From sequence record PZ171033.1: DNA of 64,000 nucleotides; one strand, 5' to 3'. Source of the stretch: a phage. Shown one piece after another: positions 51,480-61,444 of the stretch. The position numbers and the translations under genes are program-made. The notes beneath the pieces are model-generated. The model was not told where the DNA came from and ran no database searches. It worked only from the letters and a program-made list of their open reading frames with translations. How positions within the stretch are numbered: the stretch's first letter is position 1; each line of letters begins with the position of its first letter.

Positions 51480-51790
51480 ATAACATAATAGTAGTACACG
51501 ATAATACATTTACTGATGTAGATAAGATGATGCGTAATATTGATTATGTATCTCAGACTAGTAAAGCATTCAATGAAGAGTTTACTCTGTACTGTAATGC
51601 TGAATCTCCACTGGTTCCTATTCTTAAGGAATCAGGACTACCATTCTCTACAGAGAACTTCCCGGAAGAACCAGACTATGTAATTTCATTTATCTATGAC
51701 TTACATGATGGTTCTGAAACTAGTGAATTAGCTATGAACCAGTGGCGTAGTAAACGTCCTGTATTCCCATTCCAGGTACTTAAACCATGA
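51476..51790 (+). CDS. hypothetical protein
   Basis: Coupled ORF. Confidence 0.4.
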   Translation: MNNIIVVHDNTFTDVDKMMRNIDYVSQTSKAFNEEFTLYCNAESPLVPILKESGLPFSTENFPEEPDYVISFIYDLHDGSETSELAMNQWRSKRPVFPFQVLKP

Positions 51791-52167
51791 AGATTATGTC
51801 ATTAGGTGACGATACCAATGCTTTACTTGGTGTATCTGCACGTCCAATTATTATTGTTAATAAACATCGTGGTAAATCCGGTGAGTATATTGGACGTGGT
51901 TCACCGTTAGGCAATCCATTTGTCATTGGTAAACATGGAACCAGAGAGCAAGTAATTGCTAAGTATAAAGTCTGGTTACAAGAACAGATTGATAAAGGTA
52001 ATCCAGTTGTATTGGATGAACTTAATCGTCTGGGTAATAAAGCCATTGATGAGAAAGGGCTAGCCTTACAATGCTTCTGTTATCCGAAACCGTGTCATGG
52101 TGAGGTTATTAAAGAGAAGCTAGTGAAAGCTATGTATAACTATTTTGTGGAGAATCCTAATGGATAA
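51787..52167 (+). CDS. hypothetical protein, DUF4326-like (GNPF motif)
   Basis: Motif YIGRGSPLGNPF. Confidence 0.4.
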   Translation: MKIMSLGDDTNALLGVSARPIIIVNKHRGKSGEYIGRGSPLGNPFVIGKHGTREQVIAKYKVWLQEQIDKGNPVVLDELNRLGNKAIDEKGLALQCFCYPKPCHGEVIKEKLVKAMYNYFVENPNG

Positions 52168-52345: not shown

Positions 52346-52722
52346 AAGAAATCTTAGTATTCGGAAGTAATTTAGCAGGCCGTCATGGTGCTGGTGCAGC
52401 AAAAGTTGCATATAAGAAGCATGGTGCTCGTTGGGGTATGGGCGTAGGCCATTATGGTTGCAGCTATGCAATCCCAACCAAAGACCAGAACATCAAATCT
52501 ATGAAACTGGATGACATCAAAGTATTCGTAGATGCTTTCATCCTATACGCAGCATCACACCCAGAGTGGGACTTTAAAGTAACACGCATTGGTTGTGGTT
52601 TAGCTGGATATAAGGATGAAGAAATTGCTCCTATGTTTGCCAATGCTACAGGCAATGTCATGTTTGACGAAGCCTGGAAGCCTATTCTGGGAAATGATTA
52701 TATCTACTGGGGAACCTTCTAA
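52342..52722 (+). CDS. hypothetical protein with Gly-rich Rossmann-like motifs
   Basis: ILVFGSNLAGRHGAGAAKVA and IGCGLAGY motifs; family not recognised with certainty. Confidence 0.4.
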   Translation: MKEILVFGSNLAGRHGAGAAKVAYKKHGARWGMGVGHYGCSYAIPTKDQNIKSMKLDDIKVFVDAFILYAASHPEWDFKVTRIGCGLAGYKDEEIAPMFANATGNVMFDEAWKPILGNDYIYWGTF

Positions 52723-52982
52723 TGACATATGAAGAACTATGGGCTGCTCAGGTCAGAGCCAGAGCACTCACACGGCATGACATCTATTGTGCATTACAGA
52801 ACGAATTAAAGGGACGTACTAAGCTAGGTCACATATCAGGTTTCATTAAAATACCTATGCGTAGTCTAGTATGGCCTTATAAAGAAAAAAGTAATGAATT
52901 TAGCGGTAATGGTTTATATGTACGTATCAACTACCTTGGTCAAGAGAACAATATTCGTATTGCCTTTTGGACTAAGCGTTAG
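52722..52982 (+). CDS. hypothetical protein
   Basis: Coupled ORF ending just before promoter-like hairpin. Confidence 0.4.
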   Translation: MTYEELWAAQVRARALTRHDIYCALQNELKGRTKLGHISGFIKIPMRSLVWPYKEKSNEFSGNGLYVRINYLGQENNIRIAFWTKR

Positions 52983-52987
52983 GTAAT

Positions 52988-53002
52988 AGCTGCTCCGCAG
53001 CT
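52988..53002 (+). promoter_or_regulatory. vRNAP-promoter-like hairpin (6-bp stem, 3-nt loop)
   Basis: AGCTGC-TCC-GCAGCT; same GCTCCGC core; 34 nt upstream of RNAPII small subunit gene. Confidence 0.45.
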
Positions 53003-53035
53003 TTTGGTTATTAATAACATTTAGGAGAATATGCG

Positions 53036-53854
53036 ATGTACTCATCTATTGAACATCAGAAGCAGCTTGAAGTCCTTTTTAACAAAAACCAATTACTGCC
53101 TCGCATGAGGAAGGAATTCGAGGACTCCAAAGAAATTGACTTTAAGGCATTCGCTGCCTATTTAGAAATTGATTATAAGCTGCTCATTGATGCAATGGTG
53201 CAGATTGCCCTACATAAACGTGCTGACATCCAGACTATGATTGGCTCTCTCATGAGTCACTCAGATGATGCTCAGTACATCGCTGACTGTCTGTATAAGA
53301 TGGCAGAGAATGACTGCTTCAACTATGACCCTACCATCGACAAGTTCGGTGTTATCTATGAGATTAGTGAAGATGTTCAGATGGAACTGGAAGCATTCCA
53401 GTATCCATTACCAATCGTCAGTAAACCTAAGCCTGTCCTGACTAACCGGGACACTGGTTACTATGAGTCTAAAGGCTCAATCATCCTCAAGAAGAACCAT
53501 CATGAGATGGACGTCTGCCTTGACCACATTAACCGCATGAACAACCAACGTCTCTGTATTAACTGGGACGTTGCTAACTATGTAAAAGACTCTCGTCCTA
53601 ACATGGATAAACCCAAAGAGGGTGAAACCCGTCAGGATTATGAGAAACGTGTTAAAGCCTTTGAGAAGTACAGTCGTACTGCTAAGGAAGTAATGGAGTT
53701 AGTAACCAAAGAGGGCAATAACTTCTCGCTAGCGCATAAGTATGACAAGAGGGGCAGAACCTATGCCTGTGGATACCACATTAACTATGCGGGGACTTCA
53801 TATAACAAGGCAGTGATTGAATTTGCAGATAAAGAACTAGTAAACGAGGATTAG
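53036..53854 (+). CDS. phage RNA polymerase II, small subunit (N4 gp15-like; N-terminal half of a T7-type RNAP)
   Basis: 272 aa; DxxGR-type motif YDKRGRTYACGY; TAGGAG RBS. Confidence 0.75.
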   Translation: MYSSIEHQKQLEVLFNKNQLLPRMRKEFEDSKEIDFKAFAAYLEIDYKLLIDAMVQIALHKRADIQTMIGSLMSHSDDAQYIADCLYKMAENDCFNYDPTIDKFGVIYEISEDVQMELEAFQYPLPIVSKPKPVLTNRDTGYYESKGSIILKKNHHEMDVCLDHINRMNNQRLCINWDVANYVKDSRPNMDKPKEGETRQDYEKRVKAFEKYSRTAKEVMELVTKEGNNFSLAHKYDKRGRTYACGYHINYAGTSYNKAVIEFADKELVNED

Positions 53855-53855
53855 T

Positions 53856-54437
53856 ATGAAGACATGTTCAGTATGTAAGAAGAACTTGCCTCTGGACATG
53901 TTCAATAAACAGTCCACTGGCAAACAGGGTGTTAGGGCAGACTGTAAAGACTGCCTTAAACGCTTTATCCGTTCAAAACACGGAGTCATTAATCAGATGT
54001 ACTCCGGTTGTATCAGTAGAACCAAGAAGAAGGGATTTACTTCCGTATCCTTCACTAGGGAGGAGCTAGAGAAATGGGTATATTCATGCAAAGAATTTCA
54101 CACATTGTATGACAAGTGGGTATTGGAAGATTATCCAACTGCCTTGAAACCTAGCTTAGACAGACTGGATGATTACAAAGGTTATTCCCTGGATAACATT
54201 CGTATTGTTACAGCCAATACCAACGTAAAGAGGTACTACTCTGATGCAATCAACGGCATCAATACTAAATCAGCTAAGCCCGTTGAGCAGTACTCACTAG
54301 ATGGTGAATACATTAGGACATTCCATTCACTTAGTGCTGCTGCACGAAGTGTTAATGGTATACCTTCTAATATTAATCAAGTAATTAATGGTACGTATGC
54401 GCAAGCATATGGCTATAAGTGGAAACTAGGAGCCTAA
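53856..54437 (+). CDS. homing-endonuclease-like protein (zinc finger + HNH_3-like domain + NUMOD1-type DNA-binding tail)
   Basis: CxxC...CxxC N-terminus; SLDRLDDYKGYSLDNIRIVTANTN; C-terminal ...INGTYAQAYGYKWK. Confidence 0.6.
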   Translation: MKTCSVCKKNLPLDMFNKQSTGKQGVRADCKDCLKRFIRSKHGVINQMYSGCISRTKKKGFTSVSFTREELEKWVYSCKEFHTLYDKWVLEDYPTALKPSLDRLDDYKGYSLDNIRIVTANTNVKRYYSDAINGINTKSAKPVEQYSLDGEYIRTFHSLSAAARSVNGIPSNINQVINGTYAQAYGYKWKLGA

Positions 54438-54438
54438 G

Positions 54439-55656
54439 ATGCAGATTTTCACAGCTAAAGAATATTTAAAAATTGATATTGCCAATTCTTACGGGCTGGA
54501 TAAGAAGACATGGGATGAACGTATTAGCTGGTTCGATGAGAACGAAGCTAACCTGCTTAATCTGGTAGATGAAGCAGAAGAATCCGCACTGTTCTATGCA
54601 GGTGTAAACGCATGGAAAGATATGAAAGCCGGTAAGCCTATCGGTTATGCCGTAGCTCTGGATGCTACATCATCAGGCTTACAGTTACTGGCTTGCCTGA
54701 CTGGTGACCGTTCTGCTGCTGAACTGTGTAACGTAGTTAACTACATGGGCGAGAATGGTAAGCCATTACGTCGTGATGCTTATACAGTTATCTATCACAA
54801 GATGCTGGACATCCTTGGTGAAGCATCACGTATTAAACGTAGTGACACTAAGCAAGCAGTTATGACTGCATTCTACGGTTCAGAAGCCAAACCTAAAGAA
54901 GTATTCGGTGAGGGTATCCGTCTCAAGACTTTTGAGAATGTAATGGAAACGGTTGCTAGTGGTCCTTGGGCATTGAACAAGTTCTTACTGCAATGTGGTA
55001 ACCCGGATGCTAACCGTTACGTATGGGTACTGCCTGACAACTTCCATGCTGTCATTAAGGTCATGGTTCCAGAGGTACAGACTGTTAACTTCTTAGGAAA
55101 ACCATTCGACATCACTCGTATGGTTCAGGGTACTGAAGAGAAGACTCGTATGCTCTCTGCTAATATCACTCACTCTATTGATGGGATGGTGGTACGTGAG
55201 ATGCTGCGTCGTTGTAACTTCAACATGAACCAGGTGAGCTATGTTAAGTCACTTTGTGAAGGAACCTGTGATTACATGGTAGGTACTAGTGAGAATTACG
55301 ACATGGTTAGCCAACTGTGGCATAGCTATGAGAAATCAGGTTTCCTGTCTACCCGCATCTTTGATTATCTGGATTCCGACTCAGTTAAACTGGTTGATAC
55401 AGATGTAGTGCTGGCTATGCTGAACACTCTGCCTAAGAAATCATTCCCTGTAATGACCGTACATGACTGCTTCCGTTGCCATCCTAACTATGGCAATGAC
55501 CTGCGTCGTCAGTACAATCAGATTCTGTCTGACATTGCTAAGAGTGACCTACTGGGCTTCATTCTGTCTCAGGTACTGGGGCAAGAGTTCTCTGCTGGTA
55601 AGCTGGATGACAGCCTCTGGCAGGACATTCTCGAAACAGACTATGCATTAAGTTAA
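54439..55656 (+). CDS. phage RNA polymerase II, large subunit (N4 gp16-like; catalytic half of a T7-type RNAP)
   Basis: 405 aa; motif A ALDATSSGLQLLA, motif B KQAVMTAFYGS, motif C VMTVHDCF. Confidence 0.8.
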   Translation: MQIFTAKEYLKIDIANSYGLDKKTWDERISWFDENEANLLNLVDEAEESALFYAGVNAWKDMKAGKPIGYAVALDATSSGLQLLACLTGDRSAAELCNVVNYMGENGKPLRRDAYTVIYHKMLDILGEASRIKRSDTKQAVMTAFYGSEAKPKEVFGEGIRLKTFENVMETVASGPWALNKFLLQCGNPDANRYVWVLPDNFHAVIKVMVPEVQTVNFLGKPFDITRMVQGTEEKTRMLSANITHSIDGMVVREMLRRCNFNMNQVSYVKSLCEGTCDYMVGTSENYDMVSQLWHSYEKSGFLSTRIFDYLDSDSVKLVDTDVVLAMLNTLPKKSFPVMTVHDCFRCHPNYGNDLRRQYNQILSDIAKSDLLGFILSQVLGQEFSAGKLDDSLWQDILETDYALS

Positions 55657-55663
55657 TAAACTA

Positions 55664-55696
55664 GCCTCATTCCTTCGGGAGTGAGGCCTATTTTTT
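55664..55696 (+). terminator. rho-independent terminator after RNAPII genes
   Basis: 10-bp stem GCCTCATTCC/GGAGTGAGGC with TTCG tetraloop, then CTATTTTTT. Confidence 0.75.
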
Positions 55697-55713
55697 GCTT
55701 GGAGGTAATAACT

Positions 55714-55896
55714 ATGCTAATCCTTTTTGAAGTAATCTTTCAGCTAATACTGATAGTTTTATCTGTACTAGTTCTGACTACGATAGTCCGTGCCCACAAA
55801 TCTAAGTTTGCTTATTACTACTACGGAGCATACTCACTAGGCTGCTTTGTAATAGCAGGATGGATAGCTTTTGCTATCTACTGTGTAAACAACTAA
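55714..55896 (+). CDS. small membrane protein
   Basis: Two TM-like segments; GGAGG RBS; terminators on both sides. Confidence 0.45.
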   Translation: MLILFEVIFQLILIVLSVLVLTTIVRAHKSKFAYYYYGAYSLGCFVIAGWIAFAIYCVNN

Positions 55897-55924
55897 CCCT
55901 CTTAACGGAGGGTTTATTTTTTTA
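55895..55924 (+). terminator. rho-independent terminator
   Basis: AACCCTC-TTAACG-GAGGGTT then TATTTTTTTAT. Confidence 0.65.
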
Positions 55925-55970
55925 TCTGTCATGTATACTAACTCTGCTATTTACTTATGAGGAAATTGAT

Positions 55971-56804
55971 ATGCCAACTTTAAAAGTAGGTTTTAACAAA
56001 ACCACTAATGTTGCAACTGTACTGGATGCCAGTGGCTCTATCCCAGGTGGTTCCGTAGAAGTAGGAACCTTTGTACATCCAGATGCCACTTATCCAGATA
56101 GCTTAGTTATTTTTCATGGTGTTCGTGACCTGCTGTATAAACGTTCTGCTAAAGACCCAAGTAAAGCAGGCTTCTGGCCTAACAACATCGTGGATATGCA
56201 GTCTATCTCTATTGATATGAAAGCTACTCCACGACTGACTATTGCTACCAAACTGTCTCGTGTAGTCTCTGCTATCGAAGGTGAAGACATTAACTGGCAT
56301 GTTGATGTAGCAGGTGGTAAAGCACCATTTACTTATAAATGGCAATTCAAAGCTAATACTGCTGGTGCAGCATTCGCTGATATTAGCTCCAGTACTAACC
56401 CATCTGCTGCTACTGCAACATTGACCCTTAATAATGTAACAGCTGCTTCTGCTGGCACTTATAAGGTGATTGTTACTGATGCTAATGGAACCACTGTAGA
56501 AGATACGTCTTTGCTGGCTGTAGGCTACTACGAAGCAAGTTCACTGGTAGCTACTCCTGCTTCACTGGCTCTGTCTGTTGCTGCTGATACTACTGATGGC
56601 AAGAGCGTAACAATTGCTGCTATGCCTGTTGGTTCTTCTGCTGGTGCTTTATCTATCAAGACTGCTCCAGATTCTGCTCGTGCTACGGCTACCATTGCTG
56701 GTAATGTACTTACAGTTAAGCCAGTAGCTGCTGGTAATGCTACTTCTGTAGTAGTTACCAACGGTACGGTCGATGTAACCATCGCCATTACTGTTGCAGA
56801 ATAA
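55971..56804 (+). CDS. Ig-like domain protein, probable capsid decoration protein (N4 gp17-like)
   Basis: Ig-like/Big_2-like segments (TLTLNNVTAASAGTYKVIVTDANG; NATSVVVTNGTVDVTIAITV); directly after RNAPII genes as in N4; tandem terminators downstream. Confidence 0.55.
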   Translation: MPTLKVGFNKTTNVATVLDASGSIPGGSVEVGTFVHPDATYPDSLVIFHGVRDLLYKRSAKDPSKAGFWPNNIVDMQSISIDMKATPRLTIATKLSRVVSAIEGEDINWHVDVAGGKAPFTYKWQFKANTAGAAFADISSSTNPSAATATLTLNNVTAASAGTYKVIVTDANGTTVEDTSLLAVGYYEASSLVATPASLALSVAADTTDGKSVTIAAMPVGSSAGALSIKTAPDSARATATIAGNVLTVKPVAAGNATSVVVTNGTVDVTIAITVAE

Positions 56805-56817
56805 GAGTATCCTTTGT

Positions 56818-56886
56818 TTGGGGTTATAAACCCCAATATGAAACTCCCAAGTTTGACCTCCCCATCGAAGGGAGGTCTTTTTTTGG
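56818..56886 (+). terminator. tandem hairpins / terminator after the decoration protein gene
   Basis: TTGGGGTT-ATA-AACCCCAA, then GACCTCCC-CATCGAA-GGGAGGTC followed by TTTTTTT. Confidence 0.75.
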
Positions 56887-56909
56887 TTTAAACATCCTGG
56901 AGCCAGAAA

Positions 56910-57098
56910 ATGTATAAAGAGATTGCATTTTTCTCATTCTTACTGGGTGGTTTAATAGGTGCAGGATTTGTAGCTATTTCCAATACCTACTTTGGTTCTA
57001 CTCCAAACTCTGTAACACAAACTCTCAAGCATGAATGTGAATTAAATATCCCTCGTAATCAAAACTGTGTAATGCAGTTCGTACCGGAGAAGAAATGA
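56910..57098 (+). CDS. small membrane protein
   Basis: N-terminal TM helix IAFFSFLLGGLIGAGFVAI. Confidence 0.4.
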   Translation: MYKEIAFFSFLLGGLIGAGFVAISNTYFGSTPNSVTQTLKHECELNIPRNQNCVMQFVPEKK

Positions 57099-57304
57099 AA
57101 GTAATAAATCGTTCTGAGAACAATGAGGTAACTTTCGGTGATGTACAACCTGCTAATGGTTTTATTTATAACCAGACAGTGTGCTTAAAGATTCACTTAC
57201 CTGATGGTAAACCTGCTGCTGTTGCTGTAGAGACGGGAAAATCATTCTGTCTATCTGCAAGTACATTCGTAACACCAATAAACCTGGAAGGATATTACCT
57301 TTGA
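57095..57304 (+). CDS. hypothetical protein
   Basis: Coupled ORF. Confidence 0.4.
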   Translation: MKVINRSENNEVTFGDVQPANGFIYNQTVCLKIHLPDGKPAAVAVETGKSFCLSASTFVTPINLEGYYL

Positions 57305-57486
57305 AATTAACCCAGTCCCAAGCAATCTTCCTTCGTATGGTTCAAGGTGGTTCTGCCACCAGCAACCGTAATAACAAAACCGCACAGTCTCTTAAGAAAC
57401 TGGGCTTAGTTCAGTTCAATACTGGTCTTGGGTGGTCATTAACCCCTATCGGTGTACTTCAACTCAATGAAATGAAAGGTAACTAA
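57301..57486 (+). CDS. hypothetical protein
   Basis: Coupled ORF. Confidence 0.4.
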   Translation: MKLTQSQAIFLRMVQGGSATSNRNNKTAQSLKKLGLVQFNTGLGWSLTPIGVLQLNEMKGN

Positions 57487-57816
57487 ATGAAAACTTTACT
57501 TAAAGGTATTGCAGTAGCTGCACTGATAGCTTTGGTTCCAAATGCACAGGCAATTGAACCTGAACCAATTCTGGAAGGTGCTCAGGCTTACCTGGATGAC
57601 ACCCGTGATGCGTTCGGGCAAGGATTCTTCATGGGCAGTATGATCTCTTATATCGAGAGTATAAATAATTGCGTTCCCGAAGGTGTTAAGTATTCAGTCA
57701 TTCTGCCTAAGATTGCCAAAGTAGTTATTTATGATTCTGCAATCCTCAAGATGAAGAATACATCTCAAATTGTTGTGTACTCAGTACACAAGGCATATCC
57801 CTGCACTAAATCTTAA
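57487..57816 (+). CDS. secreted/periplasmic protein
   Basis: Signal peptide MKTLLKGIAVAALIALVPNAQA. Confidence 0.45.
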   Translation: MKTLLKGIAVAALIALVPNAQAIEPEPILEGAQAYLDDTRDAFGQGFFMGSMISYIESINNCVPEGVKYSVILPKIAKVVIYDSAILKMKNTSQIVVYSVHKAYPCTKS

Positions 57817-57850
57817 TCAGCAATCCCATTAGCTTTAGGAGAGTAAGTAA

Positions 57851-58164
57851 ATGGCAAGCATCGACTCCTTGACTGTATGTAATTCACGTCAAGCTCGTAA
57901 CTTTATTATCCGTGCCCTGAAAGCAGGTAACGTACCGTTCCTGACTTCATCACCTGGCATGGGTAAATCTGCAATCATTCGTTCTATTGCAGAAGAATTT
58001 GGTATGAAGTTAATTGACCACCGTCTATCTACTTCTGCCCCGGAAGACCTGTCTGGCTTACCTTTCCGTAATGGTGACCGTGCAGAGTTTATTCCATTCG
58101 CTGACTTATTCCCCATTGAGGGAGACGAAGTACCAGAAGGCTATAATGGCTGGCTCTTATTCCT
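57851..58164 (+). CDS. MoxR-type AAA+ ATPase, exon 1 (ends inside Walker B)
   Basis: Walker A SSPGMGKSA; ORF stops at 58171 right after GWLLFLN; proposed 5' splice site after T at 58164. Confidence 0.6.
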
Positions 58165-59046
58165 TAACTAACGGGGCTTCATGAGAGCAATCTCATGTCG
58201 AAAGTTACCTAAACAGGGAACCTCTTCTAAACTGGTTGGCTCAAGTGTATACTTGAGTTTTAATCAATTGGAGACAATCCTGTGCTAAATAATGAAATTT
58301 GGAAAGATGTGCCCGGCTTACCGTATGAAGTTTCCAACTTTGGCGTAGTACGCCGAAAGGAAGGAAAGTATAAATACAAAAACAGGACACATATAAAACC
58401 GTATCTTAATAACAAAGGATACTACTGCGTGAACCTGTACATGAATAGTAAAGTGTACAAATACCAAGTTCACCGTCTGGTAGGATTAGCCTTTGTACCA
58501 AACCCTAATAACTATCCTGTTATTAATCATATAGATGGAAACCCTCTTAATAACCACGAGAGTAACCTGGAATGGTGTACCCAGTCTCATAACATGAAAC
58601 ATGCTTGGGATACTGGACTGCAAACAAACAGGCACGCTAATGCTAGTAATAAAAATCGTGGAGGCTCCTCCAAATATGTAGGCGTATCCTGGAGTGAGCA
58701 AAGACAAAGATGGTGTGCCCATATAAGGGTTAACAAGAAATCTATTGGTTTGGGACGTTACAAAACAGAGGAAGAAGCTGCTAAAGCTTACGACTCCTAC
58801 GTAACTAATAACAATCTTACACAGATTGGGTACAGTACCAATTTCATTTAAACGCCAAACGACTATCGAAAACACACAGAAATGTGGAAGTGAGTAGAGT
58901 AGGGTGCAAGCCAATGGCACTCGAAACGGTAACAGCCCTAGCAATAGGGCTTTGATATAGTCTCCTCTGCATGGTGACATGCAGCAGTCAGTATTCACTG
59001 AGTGTACTGACGGCATTAGTAGTTGCGAACTAATGTGAAGATAATG
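58165..59046 (+). mobile_element. probable group I intron (882 nt) carrying an HNH-AP2 homing endonuclease ORF
   Basis: 5' exon ends in U, insertion ends in G; joining 58164 to 59047 restores Walker B LLFLDEFN in frame; 117 + 195 nt non-coding flanks around the endonuclease ORF. Confidence 0.55.
58282..58851 (+). CDS. HNH-AP2 homing endonuclease (intron-encoded)
   Basis: HNH motif NHIDGNPLNNHESNLEWCTQSHN; AP2 domain YVGVSWSEQRQRWCAHIRVNKKSIGLGRYKTEEEAAKAYD. Confidence 0.8.
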   Translation: MLNNEIWKDVPGLPYEVSNFGVVRRKEGKYKYKNRTHIKPYLNNKGYYCVNLYMNSKVYKYQVHRLVGLAFVPNPNNYPVINHIDGNPLNNHESNLEWCTQSHNMKHAWDTGLQTNRHANASNKNRGGSSKYVGVSWSEQRQRWCAHIRVNKKSIGLGRYKTEEEAAKAYDSYVTNNNLTQIGYSTNFI

Positions 59047-59785
59047 CGATGAGTTCAACTCAGCTAAGAAAGAAGTAGTAGCTGCTGCATACAAACTGAT
59101 TCTCGACCGTATGACTGGACAGAAAAAACTTCACCCTAATGTGATGATTATCTGTGCCGGTAACAAAGCTACTGACCGTGCCATCGTTAACCCACTGGGT
59201 ACTGCAATGCAGTCTCGTGTTGTCCACTTTGAAATGGAACTTAACTTCGACATCTTTGTTGAAGACGTTATGATTCCGTACAAGTGGGATGAACGTCTGG
59301 TTGCATTCTTACATGCTAACCCAGGCTATCTGCATGACTTTGACCCAGCCCATAAGAACAAAACGTTCTGTTGCCCTCGTACTTGGGACTTTGTTAACAA
59401 AGACCTCAAGAACCTCCCGGAAGGTGCTCTGCCTGACGAGGATTCCCTATACTACAGTGGTTTTGTTACACCAGGTAAGGCCGTAGAGTTTGTTCAGTTC
59501 ACTCAGGTATACAATCGTATGATTACGATTGAGAAGGTAGTCAAAGACCCCATGGGCTGTGCACTGCCGGAAGATACCAACCTATGCTGGGCTACCGTTA
59601 ACCATCTGGCTAACAAAACTACTGAAGAGAACTTCGCTGATGTTCTCCAGTACATTGAACGCTTTAAAACGTTCACCCATAAGATTCTGTACTTCCGTAC
59701 AGTGGGCAAAGCATTACCAGAAATTCAGGCTACCCCTGAATGGCGTAAGGCTGCTGCCAATATCTCTCGTTACATTCACGGATAA
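59047..59785 (+). CDS. MoxR-type AAA+ ATPase, exon 2
   Basis: In-frame DEFNSA... with no start codon upstream of track ATG 59111; sensor-1-like VMIICAGN. Confidence 0.6.
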
Positions 59786-59792
59786 TCACATC

Positions 59793-60269
59793 ATGAACTG
59801 GAATGACTTGTTCACATACAGCAATGGTGCTCTTTACTGGAAAGTATCTAGAGGCCGTGCACTAGCTGGGGCTGTTGCCGGGAGTGTGGACAATAGTGGA
59901 TACGTTAGAGTCAAATGCTTCAAAAAGATGTACTTGGTTCACCGTATAATCTATGAAATGGAAATCGGCCCAATCCCTGATGGCTACCAGGTAGACCATA
60001 TTGACCATAACAGGTTAAATAACTACCCAAGTAACTTCCGTTTAGTCACCAATTTAGATAACTGCCGTAACCAAAAGAAAAGGATAACCAATTCTTCTGG
60101 TATTACAGGAGTCTATTGGCACTCCAGAGATGAAATATGGGCTGCTTCCATAAATGATAATGGTAAGCAAATTTATTTAGGAAAATTCCCTAGTAAAGAA
60201 GAAGCTGCTAAAGCCAGGAAAGAGGCTGAAAAGCTTATTGGTTACCATAAAAATCATGGAGCACCTTAA
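59793..60269 (+). CDS. HNH-AP2 homing endonuclease (free-standing)
   Basis: HNH motif YQVDHIDHNRLNNYPSNFRLVTNLDN; AP2 ITGVYWHSRDEIWAASINDNGKQIYLGKFPSKEEAAKA; ATG 59793 chosen inside track ORF 59559. Confidence 0.75.
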   Translation: MNWNDLFTYSNGALYWKVSRGRALAGAVAGSVDNSGYVRVKCFKKMYLVHRIIYEMEIGPIPDGYQVDHIDHNRLNNYPSNFRLVTNLDNCRNQKKRITNSSGITGVYWHSRDEIWAASINDNGKQIYLGKFPSKEEAAKARKEAEKLIGYHKNHGAP

Positions 60270-61444
60270 TGAATAACATACCTACACATACCCTTACTGA
60301 TGAACAGTTAATGAGGGAGTACGACAGGATCCAAGCTAACGCCTTTCTAGGCAAGTCTGCTGCCTTTTTTGGTTCATTGCTGTGTAGTCTTAAGTTCTCA
60401 TGGAAACGCGAGGACTGTCCCACTGCATGTACAGATGGGATAGAACTCCATTTCAATCCAGACTTCTTTATCTGGATGTGTCCTGATGCAAGAGAAACAG
60501 TACTAATGCACGAACTCTGGCATGTGGCATATCTGCATGGAATCCGTTGTGGAAGCCGTGACCCAGAAATCTGGAACCAGGCATGTGACCACTTCATTAA
60601 CCTTCAGTTAGAGGAAGATGGTTACAAGTTCACTGGTATCGACAAAGGCATTTGCAAAGACCCTCAATATAAAGGATGGGTCGAAGAAGACATCTACGAT
60701 GACCTGATGAAGAACCCTCAGAAAAGGCAGAAGCCGTCAGGGGGTGCTGGAGCAGGTCTTGCTGGCGACATGAAAGCTCCCTCTTCGGGGCAGTCCCAGG
60801 GTGCTGTTGTCAACAACGTAGTACGTGCAATGCAAAGTCAGAAGATGGCTGGTGGAACAATGCCCGGTAAGGGTGCTGGTCGTATGGAAGAGGTTATTAC
60901 CCAATTCCTTAAGCCAGTGGTTCCATGGCAGGAAGTCCTCATGAACTTCTTTACCGACATTGATGACACTCACTATACGTGGGCCAGACCTAACCGTCGT
61001 TACACTGACATCTATCTACCTTCACTGGAAGATGATGAAGGGCGTCTACGACACTTAGCTTACTTTGAGGATGTATCAGGTTCTATTAGTAGTGCTGACT
61101 CTCTGCGTTTTAACTCAGAGGTTGCCTACGTTAAGAGCCAGTTCAACCCTAAAAAGATGTCCTTAATTACCTTCGACGATATTATCCAAGAAGAGATGGA
61201 CATCACTGAAGAAGATACTTTTGAAGAGATTAGGATTACAGGTCGTGGTGGTACAAACCTTGAACCAGTACGAGAATGGATTATTAAGAATAAGCCAACC
61301 GCTGCAATCATATTCTCCGATATGTATGTTCGCCCAATGGAAGAATTGCCATTTGATATACCTATCATTTGGTGTGTTCTGAATAATCCTAATGCTACCG
61401 TACCTTTTGGGGAGGTAGTTCATATCCCTAAAGGAATGAAATAA
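60269..61444 (+). CDS. VWA-domain protein with HExxH metallopeptidase-like motif (MoxR partner)
   Basis: LMHELWHVAYLH; C-terminal VWA-like region; adjacent to AAA+ ATPase. Confidence 0.55.
   Translation: MNNIPTHTLTDEQLMREYDRIQANAFLGKSAAFFGSLLCSLKFSWKREDCPTACTDGIELHFNPDFFIWMCPDARETVLMHELWHVAYLHGIRCGSRDPEIWNQACDHFINLQLEEDGYKFTGIDKGICKDPQYKGWVEEDIYDDLMKNPQKRQKPSGGAGAGLAGDMKAPSSGQSQGAVVNNVVRAMQSQKMAGGTMPGKGAGRMEEVITQFLKPVVPWQEVLMNFFTDIDDTHYTWARPNRRYTDIYLPSLEDDEGRLRHLAYFEDVSGSISSADSLRFNSEVAYVKSQFNPKKMSLITFDDIIQEEMDITEEDTFEEIRITGRGGTNLEPVREWIIKNKPTAAIIFSDMYVRPMEELPFDIPIIWCVLNNPNATVPFGEVVHIPKGMK

Follow-up and report, generated by a model that had tools for sequence, protein, structure and literature searches.

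A putative free-standing homing endonuclease gene with a PacI-like predicted active site between the RNA polymerase II subunit genes of a G7C-like phage

In a 64,000-nt stretch of the phage sequence record PZ171033.1 (here called the window; all coordinates count from its first letter), a 193-amino-acid (aa) open reading frame (ORF) stands between gp15 and gp16, the genes for the two subunits of a T7-like RNA polymerase of the N4 RNA polymerase II (RNAPII) type. We consider it probable, at about three chances in four, that this ORF is a homing endonuclease gene (HEG) of the free-standing, intron-less kind and is functional. The gene is real but was already known from the annotation of coliphage G7C: ORF15.1 of that phage (AEL79623.1, vB_EcoP_G7C) is 94% identical at the aa level, is likewise 193 aa long, lies at the same position with 1-nt spacers and differs in no material respect. 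It carries the annotation 'putative HNH homing endonuclease', and its published annotation is HNH or endonuclease VII-like. The refinements reported here, namely a predicted PacI-type active site, an attachment to the start of gp16 with co-divergence of the two genes, and the hot-spot character of the junction, are incremental.

The three ORFs follow one another on the + strand (Table 1) and encode proteins of 272, 193 and 405 aa. Single-base spacers lie on both sides of the middle one, reading TAG-T-ATG on the gp15 side and TAA-G-ATG on the gp16 side, and the HEG cassette of 584 nt takes up the entire interval from the gp15 stop to the gp16 start, in place of a spacer. The DNA of the region is 90-93% identical to that of G7C-like coliphages (genus Gamaleyavirus, Schitoviridae; N4-like).

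Presence, absence and flanking sequence of the gene

When the Gamaleyavirus junction alleles in the phage collection were counted, the window-type gene was found in seven records, corresponding to five distinct phages, and it is absent from most members of the genus and from N4. The commonest allele of the genus (22 records) is a Bp4-type spacer of ~207 nt that contains a 53-aa ORF. EC1-UPM has an empty 56-nt spacer; UE-M6, UE-M3 and UE-S5a carry an unrelated HNH_3+AP2 gene, whose domains were seen on the equivalent 168-aa ORF of locus L025; and HK2 and pSb-1 carry a paralog of the window family that is only 32% identical, the flanks in HK2 being 92-96% identical to those of the window. In N4 the two subunit genes are adjacent with a 47-nt spacer, as an earlier note on this DNA had said. 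It can be seen that the gene is polymorphic for presence and absence at one locus among collinear close relatives, as is characteristic of homing endonucleases. Insert-free alleles of the kind that the earlier note had called for were found (EC1-UPM, the Bp4 type and N4), and the situation that it had set against its own proposal, an ORF conserved in all relatives and built on a non-nuclease fold, is not what is seen here. G7C and its sister isolate 10Gb also differ in this respect, since 'ORF 15.1 deletion ... putative homing nuclease' is listed among their differences in Table S1 of a preprint from the G7C laboratory (bioRxiv 10.1101/542787). G7C contains five HNH homing endonuclease genes, apparently none of them disrupting a gene (PMC3670811).

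The 53-aa ORF of the Bp4-type spacer (Bp4 orf79, at L002:2645-2806 and in 21 other records) belongs to phrog_15352, of unknown function, and its start overlaps the end of gp15. It was considered as a possible endonuclease remnant and rejected, as nothing in it could be aligned with the cassette at the junction and it has a PHROG of its own.

All six window-type copies are intact and keep every key residue. Across these copies the mean ratio of nonsynonymous to synonymous substitution (dN/dS) is 0.08 for the HEG, at a mean dS of 0.54, next to 0.05 for gp15 and 0.14 for gp16; purifying selection on the HEG is as strong as on the polymerase genes. For the pair of the window and ST4, dS is 0.105 in the HEG as against 0.64 in gp15 and 0.24 in gp16, and this discordance between neighbouring genes of one pair indicates recombination around the cassette.

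The sequence next to the cassette was compared between six alleles with the gene (HEG-plus) and eight others, the latter including two other endonuclease types. Over gp16 nt 1-60 divergence is 0.34 between the groups against 0.10-0.13 within them, with eight fixed differences, and between-group divergence is down to background (~0.06-0.08) by about nt 60-90 of gp16. A linked flank of the kind that marks homing endonucleases is therefore present, as an association only. All HEG-plus gp16 proteins start with MQ(I/L)FTAKEYLKID, except that PGN829.1 has P instead of A6, and all others, even those with the other two endonuclease types, start with MQLLTA..YLKVD. Of 80 schitovirus loci, 59 could be scored, and 40 of these have F4/I12, the common state, which N4 also has; the L-L...V variant (L3-L4, V12) is limited to Gamaleyavirus alleles without the window-type gene. 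These patterns suggest that the gp16 5' tract may be tens of bases of donor gp16 brought in with the cassette, or else that insert-free alleles may carry a derived gp16 N-terminus, possibly a cleavage-resistant target. The last ~160 nt of gp15 have also diverged (0.19-0.30), separating the groups less cleanly.

Two further blocks within the polymerase genes are hypervariable, at gp16 nt 751-990 (55189-55428) and gp15 nt 361-450 (53396-53485). Their pairwise divergence is 0.3-0.4 and ~0.2, respectively, among both HEG-plus and HEG-minus alleles, in genes that are otherwise 95% identical, and their appearance is that of mosaic recombination tracts. The block in gp16 lies directly upstream of the motif-C insertion site that an HNH gene uses in Moonfish and in metagenomic contig L010.

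Other kinds of element were considered for the cassette. A transposon-like element was ruled out, since a search for direct and inverted repeats found no flanking target-site duplication and no terminal inverted repeats at the cassette. An intron or structured RNA around it, as for a group I intron-encoded endonuclease, was rejected because an Rfam scan of 52500-60600 at E<=1 gave no match. The cassette is also flanked by two complete ORFs, which all relatives have as separate genes, and so is not intron-borne.

Domain organisation and predicted active site

The 193-aa protein matches phrog_1035 (E=7e-29), and its family is very large, with 1,968 cluster representatives (clustering at 50% identity) at E<=1e-30. 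The zinc-finger N-terminus and NUMOD1-type tail described in the earlier note are both there: the N-terminus has a CxxC...CxxC arrangement, and Pfam NUMOD1 (PF07453) matches residues 141-174 with E=8e-8 and 32.8 bits against a gathering cut-off of 22.8. In NCBIfam the NUMOD tail gives only a sub-threshold match, to 'group I intron endonuclease'. The four ribbon cysteines are invariant in the family alignment (A3), and a wider sample of 87 sequences has them in 83, or in 82 for C7.

The segment between these modules has two strands, an omega loop and a helix with a predicted metal-binding asparagine, the arrangement that defines the ββα-metal fold in the superfamily of His-Me fingers. In a sample of 87 diverse relatives, residues P99, D102, R103, Y110 and N123 do not vary in any sequence, and D106 reaches 99% conservation. 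The nuclease motif reads PSLDRLDDYKGYSLDN...N. The core aligns with D74, H75 and N96 of I-HmuI, and the profile alignment puts the Asp-Arg pair on D74-H75, the metal ligand and general base of that enzyme. The general-base histidine of the superfamily is thus missing, its position being taken by R103, and given the invariance of this residue the substitution appears not to be decay. The earlier note had described the segment as HNH_3-like. The nuclease fold holds, but the family label does not, because Pfam HNH_3 (PF13392) has no match in the protein at E<=0.1, an invariant arginine stands in for the histidine, and the closest relative of solved structure by profile is PacI.

That relationship comes from a profile of the nuclease domain only, for which PacI is the top match among PDB sequences (E=4e-4). 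The alignment covers the ribbon (PacI 1-47) and the core (PacI 90-117, GVDRSDSFEGYSPQNARLACFICNRIKS; motif GVDRSDSFEGYSPQN...N), and in it D102, R103, Y110 and N123 correspond to PacI D92, R93, Y100 and N113. With a full-length profile PacI is not among the matches listed, and single-sequence searches of the PDB with the full protein or with residues 27-135 gave chance matches only. Few His-Me finger groups lack the catalytic histidine, and that of PacI is one of them; an omega-loop tyrosine takes the place of the histidine, and the single metal is held by one Asp and one Asn (PMC5714182, PMC4081073). By analogy, D102 and N123 are the predicted metal ligands and Y110 the predicted general base. 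We take Y100 to be the catalytic tyrosine of PacI because it is the sole tyrosine between the VDR and ARLAC segments of the aligned PacI stretch.

The protein accordingly has the active-site features of the PacI-like group (His-Me finger group 20), that is no histidine, an omega-loop tyrosine, and an Asp with an Asn, in presumed catalytic roles, and it also has the N-terminal Cys4 zinc site of that group. The second Cys4 site is lacking: the window protein has IVTANTN where PacI has ACFICN, and no further conserved cysteine is found in alignment A3 or in the 87-sequence sample. PacI binds two zinc ions per subunit (PMC3384342).

The gp15/gp16 junction in Schitoviridae and the expression of the locus

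The junction was surveyed in 77 schitovirus loci from IMG/VR, for which a gp15 C-terminus was required. The gap between gp15 and gp16 is <=60 nt in 14 loci, 61-250 nt in 10, 251-600 nt in 15, 601-1300 nt in 23 and >1300 nt in 15. The junction is a variable hot spot and is not conserved. The proposal of a mobile insertion at a conserved junction thus survives in its first half, to which the polymorphism, the fold, the NUMOD1 domain, the selection and the flanks all contribute, and fails in its second, with a gap within 60 nt in so few of the loci.

At least three endonuclease families, plus other ORFs, are found in the interval. Genes of the window family occur there in G7C, pSb-1, L042, L064, Vibrio phage pVco-5 and five metagenomic contigs that carry the nearest relatives. 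In every case the window-family gene is the last ORF before gp16, even where other ORFs follow gp15 (L042, L103, L105). The spacing from the HEG stop to the gp16 ATG is −4 to +9 nt, apart from 22 in pVco-5 and 57 in HK2, and in divergent schitoviruses relatives with 39-56% identity to the HEG lie upstream of gp16 at a distance of −4 to +22 nt.

The two genes have diverged together. Identities to the window are 49.5% for the HEG and 49.7% for gp16 in L010, 49% and 55.6% in L103, 50% and 52.8% in L104, and 39% and 34.5% in pVco-5. Over nine lineages the co-divergence gives a Mantel r of 0.72 (p=0.0004), with HK2 as an outlier; the test was made on lineages of known genomic context. Since other family members sit in unrelated contexts, tethering to gp16 is a property of the window clade and not of the whole family. 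We conclude that this HEG lineage has probably long been attached to the gp16 start.

Other nucleases use the same place. HNH_3+AP2 genes also abut the gp16 start in L025, L051 and L074. A second and distinct His-less nuclease family has its end precisely at the start of gp16 in four divergent lineages of schitoviruses (L032:2992-3501, L036:2999-3499, L052:2997-3500 and L058:2945-3490); its C-terminus reads 'LTI[D/E]R.[D/N]N..[D/N]Y.P.N..WATRKEQANN', and it corresponds to phrog_374/3377/8790. The gp16 gene itself is in two pieces in Moonfish (L004:2961-5146), L010 (4585-6787), pVco-5 (L005:3632-5728) and XC38 (L007:850-2924). The breaks fall close to motif C (aa ~343) or motif B (aa ~140-150), and the two pieces flank an ORF that is endonuclease-like or unknown; the gene that abuts the gp16 start is present as well. 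Of the insertions, that at motif B in G7C relatives is the only one proven to be a self-splicing intron, and gp16 of the window has neither the motif-B nor the motif-C insertion.

That the ORF is wedged between two halves of a T7-like polymerase, as the earlier note had it, is borne out by the genes on either side. Gp15 matches phrog_2166 'N4-like RNA polymerase' (E=8e-116), has YDKRGR as its DxxGR motif, and is 97% identical in aa sequence to gp15 of G7C and 65% to that of N4. Gp16 matches phrog_2051 (E=2e-176) and Pfam RNA_pol (E=1e-14), carries motifs A (ALDATSSG), B (KQAVMTAFYGS) and C (VHDCF), and is 96.5% identical to gp16 of G7C. On PHROG 414, a single-chain RNA polymerase profile, gp15 covers up to position 425 and gp16 starts at 428, which indicates that the two abut in the ancestral chain without loss.

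Table 1. Features of the gp15-HEG-gp16 locus in the window.
Feature	Coordinates	Strand	Basis or remark
Terminator-like hairpin upstream of gp15	52988..53002	+	consensus scan, pattern match only
gp15, small subunit of N4-type RNA polymerase II (N-terminal half of T7-like RNA polymerase)	53036..53854	+	ORF, phrog_2166
GAGGA Shine-Dalgarno for the HEG, from the last two gp15 sense codons (GAG GAT)	53846..53850	+	
Putative free-standing homing endonuclease gene (HEG), 193 aa, ortholog of G7C ORF15.1	53856..54437	+	
Cys4 zinc ribbon (C4, C7, C30, C33)	53865..53954	+	conserved cysteines, PacI 1-47 alignment
ββα-metal nuclease core PSLDRLDDYKGYSLDNIRIVTANTN	54150..54224	+	residue conservation, I-HmuI and PacI alignments
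NUMOD1 helix-turn-helix DNA-binding module, then GYKWK tail	54276..54377	+	Pfam
AGGAG Shine-Dalgarno for gp16, within the last HEG codons	54428..54432	+	
gp16, large catalytic subunit of RNA polymerase II	54439..55656	+	ORF, phrog_2051, Pfam RNA_pol
HEG-linked variant tract, gp16 5' end (MQIFTAKEYLKID vs MQLLTAKEYLKVD in alleles without window-type HEG)	54439..54500	+	candidate co-conversion tract or target-site region
Intrinsic-terminator-like hairpin and T-run ending the unit after gp16	55664..55687	+	10-bp stem, 6 GC pairs, T-rich tail

The signals around the three genes are consistent with their expression as one unit. A sigma-70 promoter scan, whose consensus does not extend to N4-type promoters, found three sites where 9.3 were expected, none of them standing out, so that there is no evidence for a sigma-70-type promoter of the HEG's own. 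The hairpin upstream of gp15 is a possible 5' boundary of the gp15-HEG-gp16 transcription unit, the terminator-like hairpin after gp16 is a strong one, and from such a single mRNA the HEG would be translated by coupling. In N4 the corresponding gp15-gp16 mRNA is early. The last two sense codons of gp15, which supply the Shine-Dalgarno sequence of the HEG, read GAG-GAx in eight of eight endonuclease-bearing alleles (of three kinds) and GAA-GAx in all six endonuclease-free ones. On the other side, the AGGAG within the HEG stands in for a 56-nt hairpin-containing spacer of the endonuclease-free alleles. This pre-gp16 spacer is conserved in alleles without the window-type gene, with the hairpin GGCTCTCC-ATAG-TGGGGAGCC; it lies at L021:1436-1491 (EC1-UPM) and forms the last ~56 nt before gp16 in L002, L006, L018-L020 and L022. 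The hairpin could be a regulatory, processing or promoter element.

Other endonuclease-like genes are present elsewhere in the window. A gp24-like ATPase gene (57851-59785) is interrupted within its Walker B motif 'LFLDEF' by an insertion of 882 nt (58166-59047). G7C has no such insertion, nt 1-315 of its gp24 aligning to 57851-58165 and nt 316-1053 to 59048-59785. The insertion carries an ORF for a NUMOD4+HNH_3+AP2 endonuclease (58282-58851; Pfam HNH_3 match, E=1.6e-8), and Rfam detects no group I intron in it; similar gp24 splits are reported from Vibrio N4-like phages (PMC3670811). A third endonuclease-like ORF (59793-60269, MNWNDLF...) starts 8 nt past the gp24 stop and has, as judged by eye, an HNH_3-like 'VDHIDHNRLNN...N' and an AP2-like tail. 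It stands at the position of G7C ORF24.1, a 'putative HNH homing endonuclease' that is deleted in 10Gb. A DUF4326 protein (Pfam E=5e-22) is encoded at 51787-52167, within the early region that lies upstream of the polymerase genes, and such a protein is likewise found in the same neighbourhood in HK2 and contig L010.

Proposed mechanism, alternatives and known systems

We propose that the HEG would be translated early together with the polymerase subunits, by coupling on the gp15-gp16 mRNA, and that its product would bind DNA through the NUMOD1 domain and the zinc ribbon. In a mixed infection it would cut the genome of a co-infecting relative that lacks the gene, at or near the conserved 5' end of gp16, and repair from the HEG-carrying genome would copy the cassette and tens of flanking bases into the recipient. 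Catalysis would be of the PacI type, with one divalent metal on D102 and N123, Y110 as general base or nucleophile, and R103 at the histidine position. The analysis shows the anatomy of the locus, the fold, the conserved residues, the polymorphism, the selection and the linkage of the flank; that the protein cleaves, where its target would lie and what its residues would do in catalysis we infer.

Selfish homing need not be the reason why the nuclease is kept. It might be retained mainly for the benefit of the phage, as a weapon of competition that destroys or shuts out co-infecting relatives (marker exclusion) or through a co-opted role linked to gp16 expression, and several observations would fit: a dN/dS that matches that of essential neighbours, a clade that is attached to the gp16 start and has co-diverged with gp16 over identities of 35-56%, and a stop codon that is translationally coupled to the gp16 start in most lineages (−4 to +9 nt), the HEG itself providing the gp16 Shine-Dalgarno sequence. 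However, the gene is dispensable, being missing from most Gamaleyaviruses and from N4 and lost in 10Gb, its distribution is patchy and mosaic, and purifying selection is also expected for homing endonucleases that are actively cycling. We therefore regard a mainly phage-serving nuclease as unlikely, while noting that benefit to the phage and selfish homing are not mutually exclusive.

It is much less probable again that the protein is catalytically dead and acts only as a sequence-specific DNA binder, for instance a regulator, like the Smad MH1 domain that descends from a His-Me nuclease. The arginine at the general-base position and the failure of both Pfam nuclease models, HNH_3 and Endonuclease_7, might be read in that way, and inactivity is known for some His-Me finger groups that have neither His nor Tyr (PMC5714182). 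Yet the arginine is invariant in all 87 relatives along with D102, Y110 and N123, the same constellation occurs in PacI, an active restriction enzyme with Tyr for His, and a mobile nuclease agrees with the patchy distribution and with the signature in the flank. As for a Holliday-junction resolvase of the T4 endonuclease VII type, the case lies in names: phrog_1035 is labelled 'endonuclease VII', as is the PGN829.1 copy in RefSeq, and the note in the G7C record mentions a resemblance to an rV5 'endonuclease VII'. The protein fails all tests that were run for it, since Pfam Endonuclease_7 (PF02945) does not match and residues 8-29, between the cysteine pairs, lack the histidine looked for as a mark of that enzyme, and this identity can be put close to nil.

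Against a functional homing endonuclease several points have to be counted. The catalytic role of Y100 in PacI is one that we infer; that Y110 faces D102 and N123 is a prediction; and, with the canonical histidine missing, nuclease activity rests on the analogy with PacI. The 5' end of gp16 may owe its fixed differences to donor sequence that hitch-hiked and not to a target site, and a dN/dS as low as that of essential genes also fits a domesticated, phage-beneficial protein. Cleavage, homing or expression data for the 193-aa protein or its close relatives were not found in the literature. Finally, according to the available text of PMC12724721, the one tested member of a 'PacI-like HNHE' class of lactococcal phages was not among the two endonucleases with a ~10^3-fold plaque reduction.

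A further and rather doubtful idea is that the HEG lineage is a relic of the element that split the polymerase: an ancestral PacI-like homing endonuclease would have entered a single-chain T7-like polymerase gene just downstream of DxxGR, divided it into gp15 and gp16 and remained at the gp16 start from then on, with repeated loss and re-invasion. We hold it to be improbable, because the split is universal, because insert-free lineages with gaps of 12-18 nt include the most divergent sampled (L091-L094, ~30% gp16 identity), and because a position between two essential genes is in itself a safe harbour. A weaker form is more likely than this, namely that the derived L3-L4/V12 N-terminus of gp16 may be a target-site resistance variant; if so, an essential polymerase gene could bear the readable trace of an arms race that is still going on.

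As the rediscovery of an annotated G7C-like feature, the gene is of little weight alone. A very large family of phage proteins that as a rule bears the label 'endonuclease VII' or 'HNH' but carries the rare PacI-type site would, however, be a tractable system for tyrosine-initiated ββα-metal catalysis in a homing enzyme. The gp16 5' end as a landing site for at least three endonuclease families in Schitoviridae bears on phage genome engineering and on the annotation of RNAPII genes, and the co-divergence of the clade with gp16 offers a natural series of enzyme-target pairs for the evolution of homing specificity.

Among characterised enzymes, I-HmuI is a nickase. This HNH + NUMOD homing endonuclease of Bacillus phage SPO1 (PDB 1u3e) differs from the window protein in its canonical D74-H75...N96, in being intron-encoded and in having no N-terminal zinc ribbon. 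R.PacI (PDB 3ldy/3m7k; group 20, PMC5714182) has a second Cys4 site and no NUMOD1, the window protein being the opposite on both counts. It is a bacterial restriction enzyme that cuts the 8-bp palindrome TTAATTAA as a homodimer, and its similarity to the window protein is marginal (profile E=4e-4); the added NUMOD1 domain suggests a longer, asymmetric site. A free-standing 'PacI-like HNHE' class was named in December 2025 in lactococcal Skunavirus phages, with PacI as best HHpred match, and was proposed to consist of homing endonucleases; it is rare there, at 2 of 268 (PMC12724721). The label of a PacI-like class is therefore not new. Those genes are likewise free-standing phage genes, in other phages and at another insertion site, and the likeness drawn here lies in this and in the PacI match.

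The seg and mob genes of T4 and the nrdA-mobE arrangement of Aeromonas phage Aeh1 are cases of intron-less homing or of genes in pieces. The non-spliced insertion in g39 of phage 10Gb (bioRxiv 10.1101/542787) is likewise an endonuclease gene between conserved coding segments of one enzyme. At the gp15/gp16 junction the insert is not needed to explain the split of the polymerase, as the split is universal in the family and is found also in lineages without the insert. What the HEG would share with all of these cases is spread by double-strand-break repair with co-conversion of the flanks.

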